From a virus, in the IMG/VR virus record IMGVR_UViG_3300035670_000030, positions 64,001-128,000 of that record: DNA of 64,000 bases. One strand, written 5' to 3'. Shown in pieces: positions 19,323 through 53,177 of this stretch. Under the pieces are notes generated by a model. The model was not told the origin of the DNA. It saw only the letters and a program-made list of their open reading frames with translations, and did no database searches. The translations under genes were made by a program, and so were the position numbers. Positions within the stretch are counted from its first letter, which is position 1. The number at the start of each line of letters is the position of its first letter.

Positions 19323-22181
19323 TTATTTATTAGTCAAGTTAATAATTTCGTCATCTTCTAAGAGTTTCAAAATATTTAACATCAATTCAGCGCTTTGCCC
19401 TACTGTGTAAGAAGAAAAAGATGAAGGTTCTTGAATTGACGAAGACGAAGATGAAGATGAGGACGATTGACAACATGGATCTAATTGGCATGGGCATGTT
19501 GGCGGATCTGATACTTTAACACACTGATAACAAATATCATTACCTCCAGGACAATTAACAATTTGAGTTTGTGCTTTAAGATATCCTTTTTCAATAAATT
19601 TATCTAGTCTAAATGGAATTGGAGTTTTCCAAGCATTGACATCTGTACATTGTTTTGGATCACATACGAATAATTCAGCAGCCGGAAAGCTCATTTCTTC
19701 TTCGCAATTAAATGCTTGTTGCTGCCAACTAAATTCAGCTGGGTCAGCATCATTTGCGCAATTATAATTCAAACAACATACATCTCTATTATCATTAATT
19801 TCAGTACAGTCTGCATTTTTTTCTACATATTGCCAACAAGGATTTTTAAAAACTACGTCTGGCAATCCTACTTCTTTTAAATTTTCACAGCAATCACAAA
19901 TCGGGCATTTGCTCTCATTTTCTTTATAATATCTTCCACAAGATAGTTCTCTAAATGATTGCCATTCGGCTTCCATTGTGTAAGGTTCGCTAGATATGTT
20001 AAGTGTATAATTATTAAATTCTGACTGCCCATCTTGACAACTACTCAACCTACTATTAATAGTACCATTTAATTTAGCAACTATAGATGGATTCAATGAG
20101 CTAGCACAAATTGTTCTAATAAAATCATCTGAAACCTCAATATCTGCAGTATTTTCAAGTAACCCCTGATTAATTCTACCACCTTGTCCTTGATAAGTTT
20201 TACCTAAAAATACAAATGACATTGTTAGACTTGTATGGTCACATTCAATAGGACTACTTTTTCCAAGTACAGAAATTTTAACCTTATCTGTACTACAATA
20301 AGGAACTGCACTTACTATTTCTACAGTTGGGGGCATTTCACAACAACTATACTCTGGTGATGGTGTTGGGGTTGGAGTAGGTGTTGGGGTTGGAGTGGGT
20401 GTTGGGGTTGGAGTAGGTGTTGGGGTTGGAGTAGGTGTTGGGGAAGGTGACGGCGATGGTCCTGTAGTACAATCTGCTTGAGTAGTGCTATTATCAATAA
20501 CAAAATCATTTTGAACAAGTTCTTCAACTTGAGCGATCTCATTGACAATATTAAAATTAACTTTTGAATCTACAAATAAAGCACAATCTGGAACTATGCT
20601 TGTGCAATAACATTGTCTAATTATAACAGATGAAGTGCCTAATTGCGTTGGAGTTCCTTCTATTAAATTACTTTTTACTGTCGATAACGTTAATCCATTT
20701 GGTAAAGATCCACTTATAACACTCCAACTATTTGGTAACAACCCAAAACTTCTCCACAAATTTTCTTCTAAATCAATTCCATGATCCACAAGACAGCCTG
20801 GGGTATTGATACTATTCACAATTAATAAATTAGATGGAGTCCATCTAGGAGTATTTATTAAAAGATTTAATGTCTGTTCATTAGATAATCTTGCTAATGT
20901 TTGTAAATTAGGTGAGCTTGAACTAGAGCTCTCACCACCTCCACCGACACATTCAAATATTAATCTACTATTATCTACAGAATACAAATTTCCGGTAGAA
21001 GTAGGAGAATTTGTTATATTAATATTGACAAAAGAATCTCTATATATTAAGCATGGTGGATACAATCCAGTACAGTAACATTGACGTATTAATACTTTTC
21101 TACTTTCAGATTGTGTTGGTGTCCCTGTTATAAGCCCAAATGCGCCAGTTGATAATGTTAAACCAGCAGGCAGGGAACCAGAAATTATATTCCAAGTATT
21201 TGGAACAAGACCAGTAGTTTGCCATAAATTATTATTAGGAGCTATAAAACTAAAAAATACGTTACCAACTTGACCAGGTTGTAATACTGAAGGTAACTCA
21301 TTTACCAACATTGGTTGATTTAAGACACCGCTTAAAGTTTGCTCATTTGTCAAAACAGAAACAAATGTTTTTAATGGGTCTATACTAGAACTCGAACTTG
21401 AGCTCGAACCCAAGCTCGAACTTGAACTCGAGCTACTTGAGCAAGTAGGACATATATCATTCAGGCCCCATTTATTATTTAAATATTCACATAATTGTAA
21501 ACGTTCTTGACAAGTCATAGTTTTATTAAAAACCATTAACTCACCTAAATCATAACTATAACCTTCTTGAAAAATTCCCGATAAACCAATAGTACCACCA
21601 GGTTTTTGAGCATTAATTCTTTCATCATTAAGATATTGGAAATTATTTAAATTTTTTATCTGATTTAATTTTTTAAATGTGTTACCATTTCGGCCAAAGT
21701 AGTTGCTTCCACTATAAATCCATTGGTCAACAATAAAATTTTCAGTACCCGTAAGACTTCCATAAGAATCAACAGCGAAACTAGGGCCTATAACCTTGTT
21801 ACCAGAAGTATACATTCCTATAAAAACATTTGTTCCAGATCCGTTATCAATTGGCGTGTATACTGCTGCTAATTTTGATACGCCAGAAATACCAGAACAT
21901 GGTAAAGAAAATGGTATTAATGGAATATCATTTAATAGTTGAACATTATCCCATTTATGCACAAAAACTATATGTAATGGAATATTTAAATCAATTACTG
22001 GAAATTCTTCGTTAATTAATTCGCCACTAGAATTAATTCTAATAAAATCTATACCATTTCCAGAATAATAGCCAAATGATTGCGTGACACCAGCCATACC
22101 AGTTACGCCAGTCATTTTGAATAAGAAATTATTCTCAGATTTATCTCTAATTCCTGAAATTGTACCAATAAAATTAACCAT
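19323..22181 (-). CDS. Modular tail appendage/adhesin: LamG-like end, two putative Ig (He_PIG-like) repeats, Pro-Thr linker, Cys-rich C-terminus, poly-Ser linkers
   Basis: GELMVFNK...YLNNKWGL; two W.IISGSLP.GLTLST...I.GTPTQ repeats; (PT)n; four poly-Ser regions. Confidence 0.7.
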   Translation of the reverse strand: MVNFIGTISGIRDKSENNFLFKMTGVTGMAGVTQSFGYYSGNGIDFIRINSSGELINEEFPVIDLNIPLHIVFVHKWDNVQLLNDIPLIPFSLPCSGISGVSKLAAVYTPIDNGSGTNVFIGMYTSGNKVIGPSFAVDSYGSLTGTENFIVDQWIYSGSNYFGRNGNTFKKLNQIKNLNNFQYLNDERINAQKPGGTIGLSGIFQEGYSYDLGELMVFNKTMTCQERLQLCEYLNNKWGLNDICPTCSSSSSSSSSLGSSSSSSSSIDPLKTFVSVLTNEQTLSGVLNQPMLVNELPSVLQPGQVGNVFFSFIAPNNNLWQTTGLVPNTWNIISGSLPAGLTLSTGAFGLITGTPTQSESRKVLIRQCYCTGLYPPCLIYRDSFVNINITNSPTSTGNLYSVDNSRLIFECVGGGGESSSSSSPNLQTLARLSNEQTLNLLINTPRWTPSNLLIVNSINTPGCLVDHGIDLEENLWRSFGLLPNSWSVISGSLPNGLTLSTVKSNLIEGTPTQLGTSSVIIRQCYCTSIVPDCALFVDSKVNFNIVNEIAQVEELVQNDFVIDNSTTQADCTTGPSPSPSPTPTPTPTPTPTPTPTPTPTPTPTPTPSPEYSCCEMPPTVEIVSAVPYCSTDKVKISVLGKSSPIECDHTSLTMSFVFLGKTYQGQGGRINQGLLENTADIEVSDDFIRTICASSLNPSIVAKLNGTINSRLSSCQDGQSEFNNYTLNISSEPYTMEAEWQSFRELSCGRYYKENESKCPICDCCENLKEVGLPDVVFKNPCWQYVEKNADCTEINDNRDVCCLNYNCANDADPAEFSWQQQAFNCEEEMSFPAAELFVCDPKQCTDVNAWKTPIPFRLDKFIEKGYLKAQTQIVNCPGGNDICYQCVKVSDPPTCPCQLDPCCQSSSSSSSSSSIQEPSSFSSYTVGQSAELMLNILKLLEDDEIINLTNK
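20362..20443 (+). repeat. 18-bp tandem repeat (about 4.5 copies) encoding (Pro-Thr)n
   Basis: Unit ggtgttggggttggagta at 20362, 20380, 20398, 20416 and partial at 20434. Confidence 0.95.
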
Positions 22182-32794: not shown

Positions 32795-35700
32795 TTAACC
32801 TCCCCTTGCCTCTCTTGGTGTTATATTTGACGAGGCTTTAGGTGGAACTTTTTGACCAAGAGCAACTCTAACTTTTTCAATAATAGTTGGAATTGCATTT
32901 TGAACGGCCTCACCAACAGCGGCAGCGATATCTCCACCACCCTGTGCTTGAACAGTTACATTTACTGGAGCGCTAGTTGTTGTTTGTATATTAGGTTGTG
33001 CACCAGTATTCGTATTTGCATTATTAGTTTGAGTTGCATTCGCAGTTTCAAAACTTGTTTGTAGATTAGCAATTATATTTCTTAAACTTTCAATTCCACC
33101 AGTTAAATTATTTAATGCTCCTGTATTAGTATTTAAAGCCGCTTCTTGTTGAGCGAACATTTCAGGTTTTTCTTGTACTGGTTTATTAATATTTCCTGTC
33201 GTTGTTTGAGGATTTTTATTAAATAACCTATCAAGGACAGCATCAACATCATTTGATCTTTTACCATTGATTCCTGGAGAAATTAATATGTCATTAAGTA
33301 TACTATTCGTAGTATTAATTGCTTCAACTGTCGGCTCATTACCTTCAGTTGTAATTCTTTCTCTAGCAAGTTTAGCAACTTCATCAAGAATTATTTTTGC
33401 TTCTGGTGTTTGAGCGCCCATCTGAACAGCTCTTTCTTTTAAAGCTTGTAAAACAGGGTCTTGATATTTTTTAGTAATAGCTTCAAACTGTGTTTCGTCT
33501 AAAGCCCCAGTTTGTCTAGCAACTTGTAATTGTGCAATAGTTTTAAGCCCACCAAGTTCTGGAATTGTTTGAAGTGCAGCATTAATTTCATCTCTAACAA
33601 TTTGAGGTGTTTCACTTGATTTTGCTACAGTCTGCAATTCTGTAACCTGTCTTCTTAAAAATTCTTCAACACCAGCAATCCCAGCTTGATATGCTTTACC
33701 TGTGGGGTCGGGAGTATACCCAGTAAAAGATTGTAAATTTCCGATAAGTTTTAAAGCTTCTCTACCAAATTCTGGAGCCATTTCTTGGCGCGCTCTTTGA
33801 GCCGCTCCATATTGATATCTAAAATCATTTGTCCCTTGTCTATAATCGAAACGAAAATCTACTTGTTGACCTTGAAATTGATCAAAAGCTTTTGTTGATT
33901 CTAGAACTTTATCAAAAACACCTTGTCCTGGTTCTTTTGGATTAAGAAATTCATCTATTCCCCCACCAAAAGCTTGTGCTTGACTTATTTTTTGTATTAA
34001 AATTCTTTGTAATTGCTCCTTAGCTAATTTCTTAAATGATTGAACAGATTCTTGTTTTAAAAGTTTAATTTCAGAATTAACTTTTGAAGATTCTTCTTTT
34101 AATTGTGTGCTAATTTTAGTTCTTGTTTCTGCATTAACATTCGCATCTGCTAATTTACTATCAATTTGTGCTAATAAAGTTTCTAAATTAATTGTACCAG
34201 AACTTTGTAGATATTGATTGAGAACAGATTGCACTTCTTTAAATGCTCGCGTCTGTTGAAAAGCTTGTACTGATAGTTGATCATTTGTTTTAGTTATATC
34301 TTTGGATGTTCCGTCTTGTCTTGCTCCACCAATTGTTTCTCCAGTAGCATCTTTAAAAGCATCATTAATAGAAGAATTGATTGTATCTACAAAACTAAAT
34401 TTAATATTTTCAATTCCTTCAATCTGAGATTGAGCGATACCCGCAATTTGCTCTCTCAATGCGAAAGCTTCTGCTAATGGGGCTTCCGGACCAACAATTG
34501 TAGCAGCTGTTTCAGTTTTTCTTGTAAACCTATCTGCAAAAATCTCTTGTCTAGCGAATTGTTCCCTAGATCTTGCTAATTTTCTTTCTGATTCTGCCGC
34601 GAATTGTGCGACTCTTATATTTCTTTCTAAGTTTTCTATAATTTTAGCGGTTGCTTCTGTAGCGGCTTTTTTCTTTACCGCTTCGTCTTGAGTTGCCGCT
34701 GCTAATTCATCAGCAGCTGTTTTAGCGTTTTTAGCTTTTTCTGTATTTTGTATAAAACTTTGTCCAAGATCACCTACCACATTTTGGAAATCTTGAGCAT
34801 TATTATTAGCCTGAGCAATAAACTGAGCAACAATATCAGCTTTGCCTTCTTGTTCGGGAATAACCTTATTTAATAATGCTTCTAATGCTCCAACATCTCC
34901 AGTTTGAATTTGATTAAGCTGTTTAACAAAATCTATACCACCAGCTTTTTGTAAAGCATCAATAGCATCCTGTCCAGTTCTTCCTTGTGTAACCGCTTGT
35001 CCAAAAACAGACATATTTGTTCTACTAGCTTGTGTTCCAACACCAGTCTCGCTTGGTAAATAATAATCTATATAATCTTGCAATGATGGGCCATTTAGAG
35101 CCTTTGAAAATTCACTAATTGCTCCAATACCAGTATAGTTTAATACACCAGCTGCATTTCTAAGAAAGTTTCTAGATTCTACATCTCCAGTTACTTGCCC
35201 TAAATCTGCAGCTGCTTCTCTTGATTGTAATTCAGCAGTTTTTTCTGCAAGAACTTTTGCATACTCTGTTTCTAATTGTCCTGTTTTTGCTGCCGCAGAT
35301 AAACGTTTTTGATCTTCGGCAGAAAGACCAGACAATATTTTAGCATATTCTTCTGAAGCTTTATTTATTACTTCTTGAGAAGTGCTTGGATCTTCAAGTC
35401 CTTGTTGTAATGTTTCAAAAGACGCTAATAATTTTGCCCCAGAATCACTAAATTTTGTTAATTCTTCTCCAGCTTTTTTTGCTGATTGTGATAATTCTGG
35501 AAAATCTGAAGCAAATGAAGATACAATTTTTGGTATTGTTAATAATGACCCAACTACAGTACCCACTGCAGCTCCAACTGGTCCAAATACAGCACCTGTT
35601 CCAGCAAAACCAGCTATCTCACCAGCAGCACTAACAACTTCTCCACCTCTTCTTGCTCCAGCTGTTTCTTGGCCAATTATATTTTTAAGTGTTTCAGCGA

Positions 35701-38700
35701 TAATGGGACCGCCAAGAGCAAGGGCGAAGCCTCCTGCTTGACCAGCAGCCCCTAATCTTTGCCCAGCTGTTCCTGCTTGAGCTTTTTTGACTTGATTTCT
35801 AGCGGCTCGAATTTCATCTGCACTTTGTTTTCTAGAAGCTCTAAAAGCTGCTGGAGAATCGTAATTAATATTGGCTTTTGCTTGTTCTCTAGCATTTGCT
35901 AAATTAACTTTCGCACTATTAACATTAGATCTTGTTAGTTCGGCTAAAGATTGTTTATACTGTTGACCAGCCCCTTGCAAACCAAAAGCTAGAAATCCTA
36001 ATTGTGTTACTACTGCTGTTACAGCCGTAGCTAAATCTGAACCTTGAACGTCTTGATCTGCAAGTGCGAAATTAGGAATATAACCACTAGCAAAACCTTT
36101 ACTACGCATTGCGCTTTTTCTTGCGCTTTTTGTTGGCTCATCACGTTTATTAAATACTCCAATACCCATTGGATTTACGCTTGTTAAGGCTTTTTCTTGT
36201 GCAAGATAAATTTGGTTTTTCGGAATACCAGCTGCTCGCTCTCGACTAACTGCGTCTTGAAGAGCCGCAAAATTTGGTATATAGCCAGAAGCTTTTCCAC
36301 GAAAGCCTCTTGTTAAACCACGCTCACGTAATTCTCTTCCAGTTAAACCTCTTTTTACTTTTGCTCCCCCAAACCCAAATTCTTCTCTTAATATTTTTTT
36401 TCTAAAACTTGTTACAGAATCTCCGCCAGTTGTTGCTTTAAAATCCGCTTTTACAATACCACCAATTCCAAATAAGCTTTGAATTTTTTCTATTCCTTTT
36501 CCAGCGCGAACATCAAAATCACCAGCTCCAGTATTAGATCTAGCAGCTTCATAACCTAGAGCTGTAGTTATTCCAACTTCAAAGGCCGCGCCAATTGCAC
36601 TTAAAATAGCACCTTTAGCGCCTTTAGCAGATTGAAATCCTTTTTCTAAATCAGATGGAGAAATTGGTTTTCCTGGGGGCGCTAATTTTTTAGTATAACT
36701 TGCGGTTCTATTTAAAACACTTTGATATATTTGATTTTCTAATTTATTACTAGCTTCAGCTTCTCCAATTAATTTTGGCCCATAAGCTGTTTGTGGTGGA
36801 AATATATATTTAATGTTATTTGCTGTATCAGTAACTACGCCACCAGGAATTGGCTTATCAGGTGTTGATAATCTACCAGGAGCAGTAGAAGGAATTAGAT
36901 ATCCATATTTTTTAGCTCCCGATACTATTACTTCTTTAGCAGTTTGAGTACCTTTTTGAAAATTAGGAATAAATCCTTTGCCGTAAGTTGGAATTACTGC
37001 CGAATCTCCGTTTTTACCAAAATTAGTAATCTCAATCTCACGATTGTTTTTTATAAACTTTTTACCATCAATCGTTCCTTTGCTCATTTGAGCTTTAGGA
37101 TTTTTTGCTCCTAAAGTTCTAGCTAATAGTTCTTCACGAGCAAAATCATCTTTGGCAAAATTTGGAATATAACCAGTAGCTCTTCCTGGTCTTCCAGTAG
37201 GTACAACTGGGACACCACCAGAAACACGAACGCCAGCTCCAGCAAAAGCTTTTGAAATTTGTGTTGCGATAACAGCTTGTTTTTGTAGTTCAACAGTTTG
37301 TTGTTGCAAATTAGCTAATAATTGATTAGCGGCAGCATTTAGACCTTTTTCACCTTGTAAAGCAAGCTGTAATAATTTGGGATTATTCGATAAAATTTGG
37401 TTAATACTTGCTTGTAAATCTCTTTGCTGTGTTGCCGCAGTGTTTAAACCTAAAAGTTGTTTAACACTTCCAGTAGCAAAACTTGCTAAATCTTTAAATA
37501 ATTTTAATAAAACGCCACCAATTAATACCAAACCTGGACCAGCAATAAATTGGCCTAATCCGTCTAGAATTCCTCTACCTAGTACAGTACCGAATCCTTG
37601 AGCATCACTTTCGTTAAATCCTGCAAGTAATTGATTTGTCCCCCCAACCAATCTTTCAATAGATGGCCCAAATAATCTTTCACCGCCAACGGCAGCCAAT
37701 TGTCTTGCATTTTCTTGAAGAGCATTTAATTGAGCCGCATAAGTTTTATTTAATTCTTCATTTCTTCTAACAGCTTGGTCTGTAGCATTCGCAGAAACAT
37801 TTAAGGCATTATTATAAATCGAATATTCTTTTCCTAAATCAGCTAAAGCAGCTTTTAAAATGTTAATTTGGAATACGCCACCGACCTGTTCTGCAACATA
37901 TGCTTGTTGTTGTGATCCAAGAGTATCATAGACTCTACCCAAATCTTGAAGAAGTTGAATTGTTGATTTTATTTGTCCTCCAGCACCAACAGTCTCAACA
38001 CCCAAACTTTCTAATAAGCTTACAACCTTAGTTCTTTGCAATCTAGTAAAAATTGTTTTAAAAGAGTTACCAATAACAGCACCGCCACGAGCAGTTGTTT
38101 GTTGTGCAGCTGTAACAATAGCTATTAATTCATTTAATGAGACTCCTGATTGAGCAGCGCTACTACCAACACGGGCAACTGCGTCCGCAAGATCTGCAGA
38201 ACTAACAGCGAAAGCTGCATCTACAGTTGCAAATTTATTGACAACCTCAGTCGCACTAACAGCTTGGCTAGCAAATGAATTTACTGCCGCAGTAAGAGCT
38301 TCAACACTCTTAACCGTATCCAAACCACTCAAACGTGATAAAATAAGCGCTTCACTTGTTCTCTTAAGAGTTTCTTCTACACCAAGACCTTGACGAGAGA
38401 ATTCTGTTGCAGCTTCTGCTACAGCTTGAAAAGTTTGTCCTGTATTTCTAGCAATATTAAAAAGTTCTCCACCAAATTTTTGCAACTCTTTTGTTGAAAC
38501 ATTAAGAATAACATTGATATCTTGTAAAGACTTTTGGACTTCAACGACTGAAGTTAAAAGTGCTGTAAAAGCTCTTTCTACTCCAAATATAATACCAGCA
38601 CTTGCTCCGAAGGCAATAACACGAGCATTTGAAGCATCTAATGATTTATTAAATTCATTAACCTGTCCTGTAATCCGACCAAGAGGTTGATCGCCCTTAG

Positions 38701-38797
38701 TTTTTAAATTAATATTATATACCTTATTGACAGTCTTTTGTATATCCCTGTCTAAACGCCTAGTATCTCCACCAATATCTAAATTAATAGCAGCCAT
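32795..38797 (-). CDS. Tape measure protein (TP901-type core) with four G(Y/F)IPNF repeats
   Basis: 2000 aa, Ala/Gln-rich; AATEFSRQG, VIGNSFKTIFTRL; lies after the tail tube and chaperones. Confidence 0.95.
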   Translation of the reverse strand: MAAINLDIGGDTRRLDRDIQKTVNKVYNINLKTKGDQPLGRITGQVNEFNKSLDASNARVIAFGASAGIIFGVERAFTALLTSVVEVQKSLQDINVILNVSTKELQKFGGELFNIARNTGQTFQAVAEAATEFSRQGLGVEETLKRTSEALILSRLSGLDTVKSVEALTAAVNSFASQAVSATEVVNKFATVDAAFAVSSADLADAVARVGSSAAQSGVSLNELIAIVTAAQQTTARGGAVIGNSFKTIFTRLQRTKVVSLLESLGVETVGAGGQIKSTIQLLQDLGRVYDTLGSQQQAYVAEQVGGVFQINILKAALADLGKEYSIYNNALNVSANATDQAVRRNEELNKTYAAQLNALQENARQLAAVGGERLFGPSIERLVGGTNQLLAGFNESDAQGFGTVLGRGILDGLGQFIAGPGLVLIGGVLLKLFKDLASFATGSVKQLLGLNTAATQQRDLQASINQILSNNPKLLQLALQGEKGLNAAANQLLANLQQQTVELQKQAVIATQISKAFAGAGVRVSGGVPVVPTGRPGRATGYIPNFAKDDFAREELLARTLGAKNPKAQMSKGTIDGKKFIKNNREIEITNFGKNGDSAVIPTYGKGFIPNFQKGTQTAKEVIVSGAKKYGYLIPSTAPGRLSTPDKPIPGGVVTDTANNIKYIFPPQTAYGPKLIGEAEASNKLENQIYQSVLNRTASYTKKLAPPGKPISPSDLEKGFQSAKGAKGAILSAIGAAFEVGITTALGYEAARSNTGAGDFDVRAGKGIEKIQSLFGIGGIVKADFKATTGGDSVTSFRKKILREEFGFGGAKVKRGLTGRELRERGLTRGFRGKASGYIPNFAALQDAVSRERAAGIPKNQIYLAQEKALTSVNPMGIGVFNKRDEPTKSARKSAMRSKGFASGYIPNFALADQDVQGSDLATAVTAVVTQLGFLAFGLQGAGQQYKQSLAELTRSNVNSAKVNLANAREQAKANINYDSPAAFRASRKQSADEIRAARNQVKKAQAGTAGQRLGAAGQAGGFALALGGPIIAETLKNIIGQETAGARRGGEVVSAAGEIAGFAGTGAVFGPVGAAVGTVVGSLLTIPKIVSSFASDFPELSQSAKKAGEELTKFSDSGAKLLASFETLQQGLEDPSTSQEVINKASEEYAKILSGLSAEDQKRLSAAAKTGQLETEYAKVLAEKTAELQSREAAADLGQVTGDVESRNFLRNAAGVLNYTGIGAISEFSKALNGPSLQDYIDYYLPSETGVGTQASRTNMSVFGQAVTQGRTGQDAIDALQKAGGIDFVKQLNQIQTGDVGALEALLNKVIPEQEGKADIVAQFIAQANNNAQDFQNVVGDLGQSFIQNTEKAKNAKTAADELAAATQDEAVKKKAATEATAKIIENLERNIRVAQFAAESERKLARSREQFARQEIFADRFTRKTETAATIVGPEAPLAEAFALREQIAGIAQSQIEGIENIKFSFVDTINSSINDAFKDATGETIGGARQDGTSKDITKTNDQLSVQAFQQTRAFKEVQSVLNQYLQSSGTINLETLLAQIDSKLADANVNAETRTKISTQLKEESSKVNSEIKLLKQESVQSFKKLAKEQLQRILIQKISQAQAFGGGIDEFLNPKEPGQGVFDKVLESTKAFDQFQGQQVDFRFDYRQGTNDFRYQYGAAQRARQEMAPEFGREALKLIGNLQSFTGYTPDPTGKAYQAGIAGVEEFLRRQVTELQTVAKSSETPQIVRDEINAALQTIPELGGLKTIAQLQVARQTGALDETQFEAITKKYQDPVLQALKERAVQMGAQTPEAKIILDEVAKLARERITTEGNEPTVEAINTTNSILNDILISPGINGKRSNDVDAVLDRLFNKNPQTTTGNINKPVQEKPEMFAQQEAALNTNTGALNNLTGGIESLRNIIANLQTSFETANATQTNNANTNTGAQPNIQTTTSAPVNVTVQAQGGGDIAAAVGEAVQNAIPTIIEKVRVALGQKVPPKASSNITPREARGG

Positions 38798-38836: not shown

Positions 38837-39859
38837 TTAATTATTTTCGCGCGCTTTGAAATATTCTGATTTTTCAAGAACTCCACCTTTTTCTTTAGCT
38901 AGTTCTAATAGACTTTTACCATGTAATTTTTCGACTTTTACTCCAATTTTATCTAAATCATCTTTTGTTGCCCCGACAGGGCTTGTAACTAAATTGGAGC
39001 TACTAGTTTTAGACCTTTTATTTTTTGATTTAATACTTGTATCTTTTGATTGGTTATCAATCCACATTACAAGCTTTTCAGGATCATTTAATATATCATC
39101 GGGAACTGATTTTCCAGACTCATTGTAATTTTTTACAATATTCTTATACATTTTCCCATACAATAAAATATCTATTTGATATTTAGTACAACCAGTGGTT
39201 GCTTTGCCCCAAAAACTATAAGCGTCATCATTTAAATAAACTAAATTCTGAAAAAACCCTGTTGCAGCTACTTTCTTTATATTATCATGATTAAATATTT
39301 CTGAATACGTTTCAAAGGCATTTTTAATATTTTTTAAAGACTCCTCATTTAAATCATAATATTCATCCCTAGTAACGAAAAGCTTTTCAGTAAAAGTGGG
39401 ATTTTTATAAGTAAAAAATCTCAATAATTCTTCGGTCAATTTACTATTAGCATAATCTTCTAAAGAATAACCAACAATTTCTCGACGTTCTTTTGTATAA
39501 GTAATTAAAATAGATTCATTTTGTTTTATTTGTTTATCTATTTCTATTCTTTGAGATGGGTATAATAATTTATCTCTTGTTTTAAATAAATTTTGAATGG
39601 TCTTTTTAAGAAAATTTATTTTAGACTCGTTTTCTGATGACCACCAACCATTTTTAATGGCTTCATTTAATTTATCAGATTCTGATTCCAGACCTTTTTT
39701 ACGTCCTTCTGATAAAAAAATATCGTAACTTGAATAAGTAGAAAAATGCTCTGCTAACGTTGGGTGTTTAAAATAAATTATAGAATTATTAACTATAGAT
39801 TGTGAAAATCCTTTACATATTTCACTATATATTCTTCCATATTCAGATTGTTTGTCCAC
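38837..39859 (-). CDS. Putative tail assembly chaperone 2
   Basis: Position directly before the TMP; charged and helical; GTG start. Confidence 0.55.
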   Translation of the reverse strand: MDKQSEYGRIYSEICKGFSQSIVNNSIIYFKHPTLAEHFSTYSSYDIFLSEGRKKGLESESDKLNEAIKNGWWSSENESKINFLKKTIQNLFKTRDKLLYPSQRIEIDKQIKQNESILITYTKERREIVGYSLEDYANSKLTEELLRFFTYKNPTFTEKLFVTRDEYYDLNEESLKNIKNAFETYSEIFNHDNIKKVAATGFFQNLVYLNDDAYSFWGKATTGCTKYQIDILLYGKMYKNIVKNYNESGKSVPDDILNDPEKLVMWIDNQSKDTSIKSKNKRSKTSSSNLVTSPVGATKDDLDKIGVKVEKLHGKSLLELAKEKGGVLEKSEYFKARENN

Positions 39860-39860
39860 A

Positions 39861-40667
39861 TTATTCGGATTTGATTTCTTCTATAATAGAAATTTTTTCT
39901 TCAACTTTAATTTCTTCTACTTCAGTTTTTTGTTCTTTTTTATCTTGTTCTTGCGGTTCAATTTTATTCTCTTTTATAAAATTTTCATCAAAGATTTTAA
40001 AATCATCTACAGAATCAGCGCGCCCCAAAAACCAAAGAGTAATAAGATACATGAATCTACGAACAACACCTAGTAAAAACTCATATTTATTTTCTTCTTC
40101 TTCAAAACTATCATATTGAATTAATTTTTCTTCAAATGATTCACCTTTAAAAATAGGACTATATTCTTCAGCATTTTTTTCATAAGCTAAGTTCATTACC
40201 CACCATAAAATGGCTCTATTACGAGCTTTTGCTTCTGCGGTATTTTCAAAAATAGCAATTTGAGATGCTTCGAAATTTTGAATATCTTTTCTAATTTCAT
40301 CTAATTGGTCAATTAATTCTTTTGAACGTAATTTTTCAGCTTCAGTCCTATCTCCATCTCCTTTAATCAAAATAGATTGTAATTCAAATGATGAATCCCT
40401 AAATTTCAAAAGTAATTTACCATATTCTTCACGCTCTTGATCGCTAATACTACCACCGCCATTAGATAAAATGGTTCCCCATGCTGCTTTTGGTAAAACA
40501 CCAGCTTTAGCAAATCTTGAAGTTTCAGCCGCATAGAAAAGTTCGCCATCTTCACGTAAGCGACGATTTGGTTTTAATATTGCAAATTTTTTTGTGAGAG
40601 TATCTTGTGATCCGTCATCTTTTTTTATAACATTTTTAGCATCAAATTCGTATAACCATTTATTCAT
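39861..40667 (-). CDS. Putative tail assembly chaperone 1
   Basis: Lies between tail tube and TMP; coiled coil. Confidence 0.55.
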   Translation of the reverse strand: MNKWLYEFDAKNVIKKDDGSQDTLTKKFAILKPNRRLREDGELFYAAETSRFAKAGVLPKAAWGTILSNGGGSISDQEREEYGKLLLKFRDSSFELQSILIKGDGDRTEAEKLRSKELIDQLDEIRKDIQNFEASQIAIFENTAEAKARNRAILWWVMNLAYEKNAEEYSPIFKGESFEEKLIQYDSFEEEENKYEFLLGVVRRFMYLITLWFLGRADSVDDFKIFDENFIKENKIEPQEQDKKEQKTEVEEIKVEEKISIIEEIKSE

Positions 40668-47058: not shown

Positions 47059-48933
47059 TTATTTAATTTTTACGCTGTTTTTATTGAAAGCAGCACTGAT
47101 TTTTTCAACCAATGATACCTCTTGAGGAGAGGAAGCGTTCGGAAGGACTTCTTCCTTTACCTCTGCACTCGAAATTACTTCTTCTACAGTTTTTTCTTCG
47201 CTAGCTACGACTTCAGAAGGTTCAGAAGCTTTTTCTTCTTTCATTTCTTCTTTTTTCATTTCAGCTTCTTTCTTCATCATTTCAGCTTTAGCCATTTTTT
47301 TCTTAGCTGCGGCAAATGTAGAAAACTTTTTATACCATTTTTCGAATTGTTCATCATTCTCGATGGCATTTAAATCTTCTGCGATGATACTACGATCTTC
47401 ATCAGTAAGATCAAATTCTTCATCAAGCAAGGCCATACGGCGTTGGAAATTGGCTTCAATTTCTTTGGCTTTAAGATCTTCTTGAATTTTCGTGAATTCT
47501 TCTTTTACTTTTTCACTATCGGCTTTGATTGATTCAAGGCTGGTTTTTAATTCAGCGATTTGATCTTCAGCAGCTTTAAGTGCGGTTTCTTTTTCTTCAA
47601 CTTTTGATTGCCATTCTTTAGCTAGATCTGCGATACGGTTCGAAATAAAATCACGAACTTCACTTGCAGCAACTTCCTTAATGGAATCATCCGTAATATC
47701 ATCAATATTTTTTAGTTGCATAATATTTTTTACATTTTTATTTTCTTCTTGGACACTTTTTTTATTCATTTTAATTTCAGAAGATTCTACCTCACTATAT
47801 TTTTTATAATTTGATGAAGAGCATTGTGGACAAATTTCAGCATACATACCTTTATAACCACAACCAGTACAAACATATTGATTATCTTTCATTTCGTCAG
47901 ATTTTTTTTCATATTTGTCTGCATCTTCGTTCTCAACAATAGATAAAGTTTCTTCGGCGGCTGTTGACTCTTGATTTTCTTTTGGTTTATCATAAGAAAT
48001 AACAACACCACTAACTTCAGCAGCTGGGGTATTAGTAAAACCAATTCCTAGTGGAAGAACATTTCCCTGAAGATTTAAAAGAACTAATTCTCCATCTTCT
48101 GTAAACCCATTGCCTCCAAAAACTTTAAGACGATCTTTTAATTCTATAATTTCTTCTTCTTTTTCTATAATAGTTGCTTCAGCTAAATTTTTGCTTCCTT
48201 TCGCAACATTAAATTCATTAAACCCAAGTTCCCAACTTGCACTAACTGACAAGTATCTATCAGAAGACGGATCACTGCTAGTAACCAATTCAGCTGCAAA
48301 TTCTGGATTTACAATTTTCCATACGTAACCAGAAAGAACAACATTAAATGGGCCTTTCATTCCCTTTACTTCTTCTAAAGTCAAAGGTTTACTACTACCA
48401 AACTCACTAAATCCATAACCAGTACAAACACCAACAACCACTTTACGATTATGTTCAATATTAAATGGTTTATTAATAAAATTCTCAACCATTGCTAAAG
48501 CAACATCTGTGCTGATTATATGTCCATTTTTATTTCCACGATTAACAACGAAAGCATCAAAAGCAACTCCCATTAAATCACGATTAACATCAAGATCAAC
48601 ATTTTGTGGAAGATATTGTTTTAACTGGTCAATTGAAGCTACTGCTAAATATTTATCATCATCAAAAGGAACCATCGCTTGAACGATAATTCCATCAAAT
48701 TTAATTGAGTATTTAAAATCTTTCATTGTATCCATTTGTAAATTTACACTTTCTTCTTTTAATAGGGCAACATTTTTGAGTTTACTACCTACAATAATTT
48801 TATCTTGATTTGTTTTTGTTAATTCTAACGCGCACAATGATATTGGACGGGTAAATGAAATTGATAAATCTGATAAATCAAATCCTGTTTTTGGATCGAT
48901 ATTATTAATAACAGCTTCTTCGTATGTAGGCAT
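47059..48933 (-). CDS. Prohead protease-scaffold fusion with internal Zn ribbon
   Basis: NKNGH, KPFNIEH, SASWELGF protease-like motifs; CTGC..CPQC; long acidic coiled coil. Confidence 0.75.
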   Translation of the reverse strand: MPTYEEAVINNIDPKTGFDLSDLSISFTRPISLCALELTKTNQDKIIVGSKLKNVALLKEESVNLQMDTMKDFKYSIKFDGIIVQAMVPFDDDKYLAVASIDQLKQYLPQNVDLDVNRDLMGVAFDAFVVNRGNKNGHIISTDVALAMVENFINKPFNIEHNRKVVVGVCTGYGFSEFGSSKPLTLEEVKGMKGPFNVVLSGYVWKIVNPEFAAELVTSSDPSSDRYLSVSASWELGFNEFNVAKGSKNLAEATIIEKEEEIIELKDRLKVFGGNGFTEDGELVLLNLQGNVLPLGIGFTNTPAAEVSGVVISYDKPKENQESTAAEETLSIVENEDADKYEKKSDEMKDNQYVCTGCGYKGMYAEICPQCSSSNYKKYSEVESSEIKMNKKSVQEENKNVKNIMQLKNIDDITDDSIKEVAASEVRDFISNRIADLAKEWQSKVEEKETALKAAEDQIAELKTSLESIKADSEKVKEEFTKIQEDLKAKEIEANFQRRMALLDEEFDLTDEDRSIIAEDLNAIENDEQFEKWYKKFSTFAAAKKKMAKAEMMKKEAEMKKEEMKEEKASEPSEVVASEEKTVEEVISSAEVKEEVLPNASSPQEVSLVEKISAAFNKNSVKIK

Positions 48934-48976: not shown

Positions 48977-49675
48977 TTATAATCTTGCAAATTGCCAATG
49001 TTGATAATCCATATTTCTATAACGACCTAAACTAATCCCGCCCTCTTCTTCGACAAATTTCCAATAGTTATTATAATCTGGATGGGCCATTTTTGCACGA
49101 TCTTTTCCCCATTTTAATTGATTTCGATCAGGATCGATATCTACAGCACATCCCCAGGAATGAGTGCTAAAAGCATTGCCGCCACGCATTTTTCTAACAT
49201 TCAAAATACCACCAAATAAATTTAAACCGAGCCTATCAATTTCTTTTTCTCCATATGTTTTTAATACTTTTTCAAAAACATTATAAAAACTTTTTGCGCA
49301 TTTTTCATGACATGTAAATTTTTTAATAGTTATATTTTTAGCCCAAGCAAGTTTCATGGGATATGGTATTTCTAAACTAGTTTGATTTTCTCCAACTGGG
49401 CCATAAAAATTAACCATACTATTATAGTCTTGTTTTGGCCAGCGTTGAGAAATCGGTGTATTTTCACTAACAGTAGTAATAAATTTCCAAGTTTTTGGAC
49501 CAACAATTCCATCAGGTTTAAGACCATTTTTAGTTTGAAATTTTAAAGTTTCTCTTTCTGTCATTGGGCCGAATGCTCCATCAACATATGGTATTTTATA
49601 ACCAGCGCTTTGTAAAAACAACTGCCATTGTTTTACATCTTGTCCAAAATCACCTTTTTTTAAAACTTTATTCAT
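48977..49675 (-). CDS. Endolysin: peptidoglycan-binding domain plus M15-family peptidase
   Basis: DGAFGPMTE...FQ..GLKPDGIVGPKTW; RKMRGG, STHSWGCAVDIDP, DYQHWQ. Confidence 0.93.
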   Translation of the reverse strand: MNKVLKKGDFGQDVKQWQLFLQSAGYKIPYVDGAFGPMTERETLKFQTKNGLKPDGIVGPKTWKFITTVSENTPISQRWPKQDYNSMVNFYGPVGENQTSLEIPYPMKLAWAKNITIKKFTCHEKCAKSFYNVFEKVLKTYGEKEIDRLGLNLFGGILNVRKMRGGNAFSTHSWGCAVDIDPDRNQLKWGKDRAKMAHPDYNNYWKFVEEEGGISLGRYRNMDYQHWQFARL

Positions 49676-50960: not shown

Positions 50961-53177
50961 TTAATTTATCCACAATTGAGAAGGATAAGATTTTGTTTTT
51001 ATTGCGCCTTGGGCGCTTGCGCAACTATTAACACAAAGTATTACATAATATGTATGTAAGCCCTGTCCAATTCCACATTGTGCAAACGTTAAGCCTGGAA
51101 TAATTTGTCTTTCGCCTCCGCCAGCTAATAATGCTTTATAATAAGGTTTGCCAATATTAGCTAAACTTCCACACCTACTTGGATCAGCTAAATAAGAACC
51201 TTCAATTGCTGCACCACATAAAGAAGTTGGGTAAATCATATAACTACTTGGTGTATAGTTACAGTCGAAATTCGCAGGCACAATGTCACTACTATTAAAA
51301 GATAAATCTGGAACTCCAATACAAACCGTCCCACCGCCGTCGTTTATTAAAGTAGCAGTCCCACCACATTCAGGACATATAGCTAAGGTAGATTGAGTTA
51401 ATGTTGGTGAACTCCGACTAGGGCTACTAGTAACATTTGCGGATCTTACGCGTATATAATAAGTAGTGTTGGCAGATAACCCAGTTACAATTTCACTATT
51501 TGTATAGATAGCTTTATCATTATAGCCAACTACAAAATTTGTAAAGCTAGAATTCGTAGCAATATCAAGACGATATTGATTCGCATTTGGGACAACATTC
51601 CAACTTAATGTAAATCCATTAGAAGTGACATTAGAACTTGTTGGCTGATTAGGCATTGCAGTCGCAGTCACTCTACCAATATATTGTGAATTATTACTTA
51701 TACCATCTTCATTCGCCGCACGAACTCTTATCCAGTATGTTGTAAAAGCTGATAAATTATTTACAATTTGACTTGTTCCATTTACTGTAAGATTATTATA
51801 ACCAATCACATAATTTGTAAAATTATTATCCGTAGCTACATCAAGACGATAATTTATTGCTGTTGGAACGCTATTCCAATTTGCCGTAAAACTTATATCA
51901 TTTACATTAGTTGTTGTGGGTTGACTTGGGGCAGCTGGAATTGCAATACTTTTTCGACTAATCGCTATATCCATCCAATCTCTTAATGAATCTCTTTGTG
52001 ACCAAGTGTTTCCATAATCATTAGATCCGTATAATTCTGATACACCATTAGCGATTTGGTATTTTCCATCTCCATTCATAGCTATATTGTACCATTTTTT
52101 TGGAAAATCTAATATTGGACCTTTTGGAGCCCAAGAGTTTTGGAGACCATAATTATTTGAAACCCATATTCTTCCATTATCTGCTACATCAACAATACTT
52201 TGATATTTACCATCATTACTTACGGATACATCATGCATAGCTGAATTTGGTGAAATTGATAAAATATTAAAAGAAATACCTGAATTATTAGAAATAACAA
52301 CTCCTCCTTCGGTAAAGAAAGCGGATAAAGTTATGTATTTACCATCCGCGCTCATACCAACACTAGTATATGTGCCAGGTCCGATATTCGCGCCAGACCA
52401 TGTTTCCCCATAATCTTTTGAAATATATAATCCGGAAAATAACCCTTCAGAACCTGGGCCTCCAACATATGTATTTGTAACCTGAAATTTACCATCAGAA
52501 GAAACACAAAGATTTACTAAATTACCATTATTTGGTACTGAAAATTTTGGATTCCATGTTTCTCCATAATCATTAGAAACATAAATATTATTAGGAAGAA
52601 GATCTTCATATGTAAAATTATTCCTAGATACTATGGCTGTTTGGTATTTACCATTACTACTCATCGCTACACGATACCATGCTCTCGGAGTGCTTATTTT
52701 TTCAATAAAATTTTGACCAGAATTGTTAGATACAAATATACCACCACTATTAACAACAGCCGTTTGATATTTAGCATCATGACTAATAGCTACCCCACGC
52801 CACCCTGATACTTCTCCAGTCGCTACCCATGTCTGTCCATAATCTTTTGATAAATAAATTCTACTTTCAGCTTGTTTACTTGCTGCTATTTGGTATTTTC
52901 CATCATTCAATATATAATCATCATCTAATGGTCTCTCACCCCATGTGTAATTATAATTTGTATTAGAAACTATATTTGTACTTGAATTTGGCTCCCAATT
53001 AGCAATTACATTTCCACTTGTGTAAATAACTTTAAAATTTGATAAAGTTTTGCCAAAAGGATTATCAAAAAATTGCCAAAAATCCCCCCCAGGGAAAGGC
53101 CAAAGTAAGGTATTCCCCAAATATAAGCGGCTAACAATTCCAGTACCTAGATAAAAATTATCAGCTTCTTGCAACAT
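50961..53177 (-). CDS. Fibre/receptor-binding protein: Asp-box beta-propeller, two fibronectin III domains, Cys-rich tip
   Basis: Repeated S.DYG.TW and MS.DGKYQ; two F...W..V.....Y.LD.AT...L...TTY.IRVR.AN domains. Confidence 0.8.
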   Translation of the reverse strand: MLQEADNFYLGTGIVSRLYLGNTLLWPFPGGDFWQFFDNPFGKTLSNFKVIYTSGNVIANWEPNSSTNIVSNTNYNYTWGERPLDDDYILNDGKYQIAASKQAESRIYLSKDYGQTWVATGEVSGWRGVAISHDAKYQTAVVNSGGIFVSNNSGQNFIEKISTPRAWYRVAMSSNGKYQTAIVSRNNFTYEDLLPNNIYVSNDYGETWNPKFSVPNNGNLVNLCVSSDGKFQVTNTYVGGPGSEGLFSGLYISKDYGETWSGANIGPGTYTSVGMSADGKYITLSAFFTEGGVVISNNSGISFNILSISPNSAMHDVSVSNDGKYQSIVDVADNGRIWVSNNYGLQNSWAPKGPILDFPKKWYNIAMNGDGKYQIANGVSELYGSNDYGNTWSQRDSLRDWMDIAISRKSIAIPAAPSQPTTTNVNDISFTANWNSVPTAINYRLDVATDNNFTNYVIGYNNLTVNGTSQIVNNLSAFTTYWIRVRAANEDGISNNSQYIGRVTATAMPNQPTSSNVTSNGFTLSWNVVPNANQYRLDIATNSSFTNFVVGYNDKAIYTNSEIVTGLSANTTYYIRVRSANVTSSPSRSSPTLTQSTLAICPECGGTATLINDGGGTVCIGVPDLSFNSSDIVPANFDCNYTPSSYMIYPTSLCGAAIEGSYLADPSRCGSLANIGKPYYKALLAGGGERQIIPGLTFAQCGIGQGLHTYYVILCVNSCASAQGAIKTKSYPSQLWIN

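Follow-up and report, generated by a model that had tools for sequence, protein, structure and literature searches.

What does a short peptide do that is repeated four times along a phage tape measure protein (TMP), and what are the segments that it separates? The question is raised by a locus in the IMG/VR virus record IMGVR_UViG_3300035670_000030, of which we analysed a stretch of 64,000 nucleotides (positions 64,001 to 128,000; termed the window below, and the reference for all coordinates). The source is an uncultured aquatic phage represented by a 143.7-kb contig of ~30% GC, and the gene concerned lies on the minus strand at 32795-38797, encoding 2000 amino acids (aa) in one uninterrupted reading frame (P0001). 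A preliminary description of the window had read the product as a polyprotein vehicle, in which paired G(Y/F)IPNF repeats serve as cleavage or exchange junctions around a nuclease cargo of the PD-(D/E)xK type. We find that the product is a TP901-family tape measure protein, and our results support the exchange of modules at the repeats, here called joints, among related TMPs, but not the nuclease. The explanation that we favour, to which we assign a rough probability of 0.5, is that exchangeable modules (E, C and B) are set off by joints which a maturation activity reads and cuts.

The tape measure protein and its joint peptide

Profile searches bore out the identity of the protein given in the preliminary description. 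Matches to PF10145 (E=1e-24; 88 bits against a cut-off of 33.2), to TIGR01760 (tape_meas_TP901; E=2e-30; 105.8 bits against a cut-off of 28.8) and to ten tape-measure PHROGs (best E=8e-52) are all confined to the N-terminal ~500 aa. The TP901-type domain itself occupies aa 75-396 (37610-38575, minus strand), and this N-terminal domain is 32.6% identical to the N-terminal region of YomI of SPbeta. The protein also has the general features of a TMP, being very long and mostly helical, encoded within a run of open reading frames (ORFs) on one strand and furnished with six hydrophobic Gly/Ala-rich stretches (aa 55-85, 413-431, 729-747, 922-940, 1015-1041 and 1054-1099).

The peptide G[YF]IPNF occurs four times, exactly where it had been placed before: joint 1 (GYIPNF, aa 542-547) at 37157-37174, joint 2 (GFIPNF, aa 608-613) at 36959-36976, joint 3 (GYIPNF, aa 838-843) at 36269-36286 and joint 4 (GYIPNF, aa 905-910) at 36068-36085, all on the minus strand and with the claimed spacings of 66, 230 and 67 aa. 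From composition ~1e-4 copies would be expected per protein, and one or more copies appeared in 9 of 20000 shuffles; a six-frame scan of the 143.7-kb contig located the motif in the TMP ORF alone. Since the four copies differ in their codons for Gly, Ile, Pro and Phe, it is the peptide that is under selection rather than the DNA, and it is for the same reason unlikely that the joint is a recombination signal at the DNA level.

A protein search with aa 520-930 returned 392 matches, and our statistics on relatives rest on the 120 of these 392 that were listed. All 120 are metagenomic TMPs, 1273-3229 aa long, and the strict form G[YF][IV]PNF is present in 119 of them, at 1-9 copies each and 530 in all. 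The logo of the joint core, A-x-G-[YF]-[IV]-P-N-F-A, is near-invariant: among 559 copies retrieved with a looser pattern, Gly and Pro are found in 100%, Ile/Val in 99%, Tyr/Phe and Asn in 98% each and the final Phe in 97%, with Ala at -2 (87%) and at +1 (85%), a Gly at -4 and a stretch rich in Arg/Lys ahead of the motif. Distant relatives have a degenerate G-x-[LMI]-P-[RK]-[YF]-A-[RK]-G at equivalent sites, and the Asn, being replaced there by Arg or Lys, is thus not essential. A tblastn search with aa ~510-946 gave no match in 50,697 phage records (INPHARED), and therefore no cultured relative with E, C or B; a literature search on the motif likewise found no paper containing the joint peptide. 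The relatives' loci L008-L020 were assigned to metagenome-assembled genome (MAG) bins from many phyla, Bacteroidota being the commonest, and bins of Flavobacteriales/Flavobacteriaceae and Crocinitomicaceae account for 6 of these 13 loci. The bins probably contain mis-binned phage contigs and give a weak hint as to the host.

Modules between the joints

Splitting the 120 relatives at the motif yielded 679 segments, which were then clustered. The segments fall into characteristic sizes (A, ~547 aa; E, ~66; C, 210-342; B, ~67; D, ~1000-1350) and a general order, A-E-C-B-D, with optional modules between E and C and between C and B and an optional I-F-H at the end. The extra modules that some relatives have on either side of C, after E or ahead of B, are ~180-240 aa long, and each additional module comes with its own copy of the motif. 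Relatives of 2800-3200 aa have an added cassette of I (~640 aa) and F (~76 aa, B-like), inserted directly ahead of a conserved last ~110 aa; its carriers are P0008, P0018, P0020, P0021, P0053, P0061, P0063, P0080, P0081 and P0104. The last ~110 aa of the window TMP (aa 1879-1987) match module H of these longer relatives, and in the window TMP they continue from D without a joint.

The protein encoded in the window has the five basic segments, all on the minus strand. Module A (aa 1-541; 37175-38797) is a conserved helical N-terminal ruler segment, represented by cluster A in 119 of the 120 relatives; its stretches at aa 55-85 and 413-431 are hydrophobic and rich in Gly. At the other end, module D (aa 911-2000; 32795-36067) is, judged by hydropathy and alleles, a variable helical C-terminal ruler segment that begins with hydrophobic Gly-rich stretches (aa 922-940 and 1015-1099). 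For the part in between, an AlphaFold2 (AF2) model of aa 530-925, based on an alignment of 56 sequences (mean predicted local distance difference test, pLDDT, 74), contains three confident domains, E at ~aa 550-603, C at ~aa 621-810 and B at ~aa 844-900. All four joints lie in disordered segments between these folded modules, with pLDDT <50 at each of them, which argues that they are linker peptides and not strands of a domain.

Modules E and B are both small, well-conserved domains, predicted to be alpha/beta. Module E (aa 548-607; 36977-37156; pLDDT ~86-93) is modelled as one helix plus strands, belongs to a cluster found in 91 TMPs and is 82-97% identical in most close relatives; module B (aa 844-904; 36086-36268; pLDDT ~77-87) belongs to a cluster of 117 segments and is 75-85% identical in most close relatives. 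When the two were compared with hhalign, the joint itself was the sole part that they share. Module C (aa 614-837; 36287-36958), the hypervariable middle module, consists of a variable beta-rich N-terminal part, a conserved core of the alpha/beta type and a tail that is basic and disordered.

Exchange of modules at the joints

That the repeats might be exchange junctions had been suggested in the preliminary description, and the collection of homologues now supports it: the segments between motifs vary in number and identity, and similarity breaks exactly at the motifs. In the multiple alignment near-identity ends at the last residue of joint 2, returns at joint 3 and ends again after joint 4. 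Over 2415 protein pairs, identity is 0.86-0.96 in the motif against 0.07-0.10, the level of chance, in the ten residues just inside C. After joint 2 pairwise identity drops from ~0.4 to 0.07-0.10 within two residues, and at joint 3 it is 0.07-0.10 ahead of the motif and 0.3-0.4 behind. Among 70 five-segment TMPs, alleles delimited at 60% identity number 3 for A, 6 for E, 11 for B, 32 for C and 38 for the first 400 aa of D; with 32 alleles of C, the region between the repeats is anything but invariant.

Boundaries of this kind might also be seen if nothing were exchanged and slowly evolving modules (E, B) simply lay beside fast ones (C, D), and it is true that C and D vary throughout, in contrast to the short, conserved E and B. 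The identities of individual relatives to the window TMP are, however, discordant. Given in the order A/E/C/B/D, they are 85/85/33/84/39% for P0007, 81/52/84/33/31% for P0006, 94/28/33/46/70% for P0048 and 86/94/26/28/39% for P0062, so that P0006 combines a C of 84% with a B of 33% and P0007 a C of 33% with a B of 84%. Because differences in rate alone cannot give such combinations, modules must reassort at or next to the joints. Four-gamete incompatibilities between neighbouring modules (10 for E-C, 3 for C-B and 2 for B-D) and the gain or absence of whole modules at joints tell against mere rate variation as well, and we regard it as very improbable. The identity of C is uncorrelated with that of A, E or B (r 0.11-0.17), and the window's C allele is common only to P0002-P0006. 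Exchange of modules at the joints among related TMPs is thus supported.

Module C and the proposed nuclease

The preliminary description had proposed that the insert between joints 2 and 3 is a PD-(D/E)xK nuclease that is injected as an effector together with the genome. The sequence elements on which that proposal was built are present and in the order described, namely IGAAFE from aa 735 (36578-36595), GDFDV from aa 759 (36509-36523) and KADFK from aa 783 (36437-36451). The insert had also been called non-helical and rich in Gly, Lys and Arg; Gly (14%) and Lys (10%) agree with this, but the AF2 model has 41% helix and 16% strand, and Arg makes up only 5% of the 224 aa, clustered in the final ~35 residues. 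With phmmer, 1.84 billion representatives yielded 109 proteins, all matching module C, whose matches centre on query residues 70-195 and so define a conserved core at aa 683-808 (36374-36751). Within this core lie E740, D760, D762, R764, D785, K787 and K801, together with the invariant G736, F739 and F776. The best conserved part of C is a hydrophobic helix of the small-xxx-small, glycine-zipper-like type at aa 726-748 (36554-36622), recognised from the Kyte-Doolittle profile (1.59 over aa 729-747) and the AF2 model, which has small residues at 726, 730, 734, 738, 742 and 746 and holds IGAAFE.

Several observations do speak for a nuclease of this type. The series helix-E740, D760 and D762, D785-x-K787 and K801 is ordered as in such an enzyme and mostly conserved: in 56 sequences position 740 is acidic in 56, D760 is kept in 40, D762 in 46, D785 (as Asp or Glu) in 54, K787 in 53 and K801 in 55. 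In the AF2 model, moreover, a short strand follows D760 and D762, and D-F-K is part of a strand. The same data nonetheless contain much that does not fit a nuclease. Several C alleles lack the Asp residues, some of them both D760 and D762, the positions that are truly invariant are not the charged ones, and the proposed catalytic Glu belongs to the hydrophobic zipper helix. The modelled strands are just 2-4 residues long, and a helix intervenes between the strands of the first Asp residues and of the DxK (AF2, pLDDT 74). Module C has no Pfam match at E<=10, no NCBIfam match at E<=1 and no sequence match in the PDB, and searches of Pfam, PHROGs and NCBIfam with E-C-B and with C gave no match. 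When the predicted structure of C was searched, Foldseek gave no match beyond noise in the PDB (E>=0.4) or in BFVD (E>=0.03), and no nuclease was among its matches; VIA-align reached a best Z of 4.7 over 48,161 representative chains and of 2.9 over the top 524 Foldseek chains, with no nuclease listed and the best match covering a helical hairpin only. Folding aa 722-837 alone gave a pLDDT of 54, too poor for a fold search. The top structural matches of C (Z 3.7-4.7) are helical hairpins, many from ion-channel pore domains, which we take as a common arrangement, and a search of the ESM Atlas returned just unnamed viral clusters and TMP families with scores at the level of chance.

The distribution of C also differs from that of an effector with free-standing counterparts, none of which were found. 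Almost all of the phmmer matches are 1000-3800 aa long and contain the module at ~aa 600-900; a few are short and have the appearance of fragments. A search restricted by length for a free-standing C yielded one 160-aa protein (83% identity over 42% of the query), which is encoded on a 910-nt contig and was taken as a fragment. Since nearly all proteins that contain C are long, in most cases >1000 aa, the module is not an effector that also occurs in free-standing enzymes. Without a family or fold match, and with charged residues that are conserved but not invariant, the designation of C as a PD-(D/E)xK nuclease is not supported. We consider it quite unlikely that C is such a nuclease, and still improbable that it is a new enzyme of any kind; the claim of a nuclease cargo should not be carried into annotation.

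What C does may instead be related to its variability, which points to a host-facing role in crossing the envelope, or to evasion of defence. A tentative alternative is that C belongs to the DNA conduit and acts on the envelope or the membrane. Its zipper helix would insert in the membrane or pack within a membrane-spanning TMP assembly, and its variable surface would be an adaptation to host factors of the inner membrane or periplasm, or a means to evade exclusion or defence proteins. The helix at aa 726-748 is one of the six hydrophobic Gly/Ala-rich stretches of the TMP as well as the best conserved part of C, the module is hypervariable, and it is nearly restricted to proteins of tape-measure size, at a fixed position. 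Glycine zippers overlapping transmembrane segments are known in TMPs, and the effector Tde1 needs one for translocation (PMC10240207). A membrane role sits less easily with the AF2 model, in which the zipper helix packs into a soluble-looking helical hairpin beside amphipathic helices, and with the always-acidic E740 within that helix; it also leaves the conserved D/D/D-x-K/K cluster unexplained.

Are the joints cleavage sites?

The favoured explanation would join these observations as follows. A and D would be two long helical ruler segments, interrupted by the independently folding E, C and B. One conserved partner would read the joint peptide, most likely the activity that matures TMPs after tail assembly, and the cut would be made at the Asn, or at the Arg or Lys that takes its place in distant relatives, or directly behind that residue. 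Cutting would release E, C and B within the tail lumen, for expulsion ahead of the DNA, and from what is generally known of TMPs we infer that these modules would be injected into the host. The linker would become a recombination boundary because only there does a crossover spare every fold and every recognition site. For the putative cleavage of the joints taken by itself we see a little less than an even chance.

The closest parallel to the joint is the mapped site of T5. The TMP of that phage, pb2, matures into pb2* and pb2C during tail assembly (Linares et al. 2023, PMC10038345), and it is cut after R1127, between a hydrophobic stretch and a muralytic domain (PMC10038345); read from its record, the site is NSFVPR|AEGG. 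The joint core as well as its variants in distant relatives conform to the pattern [FYH][IVLM]P[RKN], which pb2 contains once in 1219 aa, exactly at P4-P1 of the cut, and which is expected 0.041 times per shuffled pb2. Joint 4, for its part, precedes the hydrophobic stretch at aa 922-940 by 12 aa.

A number of points weigh against cleavage. The T5 likeness comes to four residues and is suggestive but no proof, since the pattern was defined after both sequences had been seen, and T5 and lambda have one cut, not four. Cuts at joints 1-4 would separate the two halves of the ruler, which could be tolerated only after assembly. The chemistry of any cut is unclear in view of the change from Asn to Arg or Lys in distant relatives, which also makes an Asn-driven self-cleavage unlikely. 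A protease candidate was sought among the neighbour genes scanned with Pfam and PHROGs and none was found, and the clade of this TMP is without a cultured member (0 matches in the 50,697 phage records). A relative with its gene naturally split at a joint was likewise sought and not found. Of the two candidates, P0176 ends at the end of its contig, and in P0175 (L021; JGI 3300075398) the frame changes ~60 aa past joint 2, in an A-rich run. In this last locus (L021:1-700) the shift lies within an A-rich run that encodes Lys and Arg, and the gene caller starts a separate 1433-aa protein at module C; either a sequencing error or a genuine frameshift could explain the change, and the contig continues for only ~630 nt upstream of this locus.

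Finally, the conservation data suit an uncleaved role in docking or oligomerisation equally well. The joint might never be cut and might instead be a docking or re-registration element, for a tail assembly chaperone, for the tube lumen or for the re-association of the three TMP chains after each globular module. Both the conservation of the joint and its placement in linkers would be the same as under cleavage, and this reading spares the ruler the four cuts that would disconnect it and needs no protease, of which the scanned neighbours offered none. The lumen of the tail tube is acidic, and the basic residues upstream of the motif would suit it. The slot directly upstream of a TMP gene, the usual place of tail assembly chaperone genes, is here filled by two unannotated genes. 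The AF2 model nevertheless shows the joint without contact to the flanking domains, and the joint core matches the mapped T5 cleavage site; on balance we hold the docking role to be possible but rather unlikely. At the opposite extreme stands the more ambitious idea that G[YF][IV]PNFA is the signal of a dedicated TMP-maturation activity, that the TMPs of this clade are true polyproteins which fill the tail lumen with interchangeable proteins, each released on its own, and that C is an enzyme of new fold, possibly a nuclease, delivered ahead of the DNA, which appears doubtful.

Comparison with known systems

TMPs with embedded domains and with maturation cleavage are already known, and exchangeable modules fenced by joints are a variant of these. 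In T5 pb2, as in the window TMP, a folded domain that is not part of the ruler is split from it by a linker, and in T5 this linker is cut. The two differ in that pb2 has one site and a known metallopeptidase domain, whereas the window TMP has four sites and orphan modules, with up to nine strict copies in its relatives, and in that the joint has Asn after Pro, followed by an aromatic residue, where the T5 site has Arg after Pro. No homology to pb2C was detected for E, B or C by hhalign. A resemblance of module E, noticed by eye, to the GExGxE(V/I)(V/I)P that follows the T5 cut and to lambda gpHC was discarded, as hhalign gave probabilities of <=2%.

Lambda gpH is processed after tail assembly, as is proposed for the window TMP. 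In its maturation to gpH* and gpHC it loses a C-terminal piece of ~14 kDa from a Gly-rich region, and the exact site and the catalyst were reported as unknown in the 2025 Ur-lambda paper (PMC12617516). Near their C-termini, gpH (FATGGF at ~aa 733 and YATGGY at ~aa 778) and YomI (FASGGY at aa 2143) contain [FY]-A-[ST]-G-G-[FY], a peptide similar to the joint's A-x-G-[YF] half. Unlike the window TMP, gpH lacks an IPNF half as well as embedded middle modules, and hhalign detected no homology; YomI has its single FASGGY and no IPNF.

Domains that are not part of the ruler are also found inside the TMPs of mycobacteriophage TM4, described as carrying a peptidoglycan-hydrolase motif (PMC1796659), and of SPbeta (YomI). 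As far as the accounts consulted go, the inserts of these two proteins, unlike those of the window TMP, can be recognised as enzymes, and no repeated peptide encloses them. The TMP-related effectors of contractile injection systems of the Sle1 type, presented as reconfigurable (PMC13277306), and the polyvalent proteins of phages and plasmids (Iyer et al. 2017, PMC5512222) are, according to their abstracts, modular and injected and have swappable domains, as here; these abstracts mention no conserved fencing peptide. Polyvalent proteins are defined there by recognisable enzymatic or anti-defence domains, none of which was detectable in the window TMP with Pfam, NCBIfam or PDB searches, and we therefore do not class it with them. 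Precomputed Pfam assignments on the 120 listed relatives consist of PF10145 only, except for one PF04961 on P0108, and a PDB sequence search with four relatives that have extra modules gave no credible match. In Tde1, a type VI secretion system effector, a glycine zipper precedes the DNase domain and mediates membrane translocation (PMC10240207). Tde1 and the window TMP thus both have a small-xxx-small helix in an injected protein, a likeness of pattern only, and the zipper of the window TMP lies inside module C and not in a predicted transmembrane terminus.

Neighbouring genes

The genes around the TMP are very divergent. No Pfam match was obtained for 18 of the 20 neighbour genes scanned, nor a PHROG match for 9 of the 10 of those that were also scanned against PHROGs. 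Within 15839-48933, 19 of the 20 large ORFs that flank the TMP gene are without a Pfam match, the exception being an immunoglobulin-like He_PIG domain in 19323-22181, and none of the nine flanking ORFs scanned there matches a PHROG, which makes the virion module a very divergent one. An endolysin-like gene at 48977-49675 (minus strand; PG_binding_1, E=5e-14, and Peptidase_M15_4, E=1e-5) sits directly upstream of a 624-aa ORF (47059-48933), in an otherwise orphan block on the same strand. Further upstream, a 738-aa protein (50961-53177, minus strand) matches the major tail protein PHROG phrog_4971 over aa 416-505 (E=2e-9) and far exceeds the usual length of a tube protein.

The two orphan genes immediately upstream of the TMP, at 38837-39859 and 39861-40667 (both minus strand), gave no match in Pfam and PHROG scans. 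The frame of the second ORF (38837-39859) opens 7 codons ahead of its GTG, overlapping the end of the first (39861-40667) in the +1 frame, and an A-rich run (GAAGAAAAAATTT) lies just upstream.

Concluding remarks

How, by what and why TMPs are cut are questions that date from the 1970s. In hundreds of TMPs a near-invariant nine-residue peptide marks each boundary between modules, and it fits the sole site that has been mapped, that of T5. It provides a concrete sequence that can be mutated, sought in virome proteomics or employed as bait for a partner. The sharp mosaic boundaries at the joints imply that the part of a long tail that is carried in its lumen is a system of exchangeable cassettes, and such a system bears on host range, on the evasion of defence and on the engineering of tails, or of tail-like injectors, with chosen proteins.

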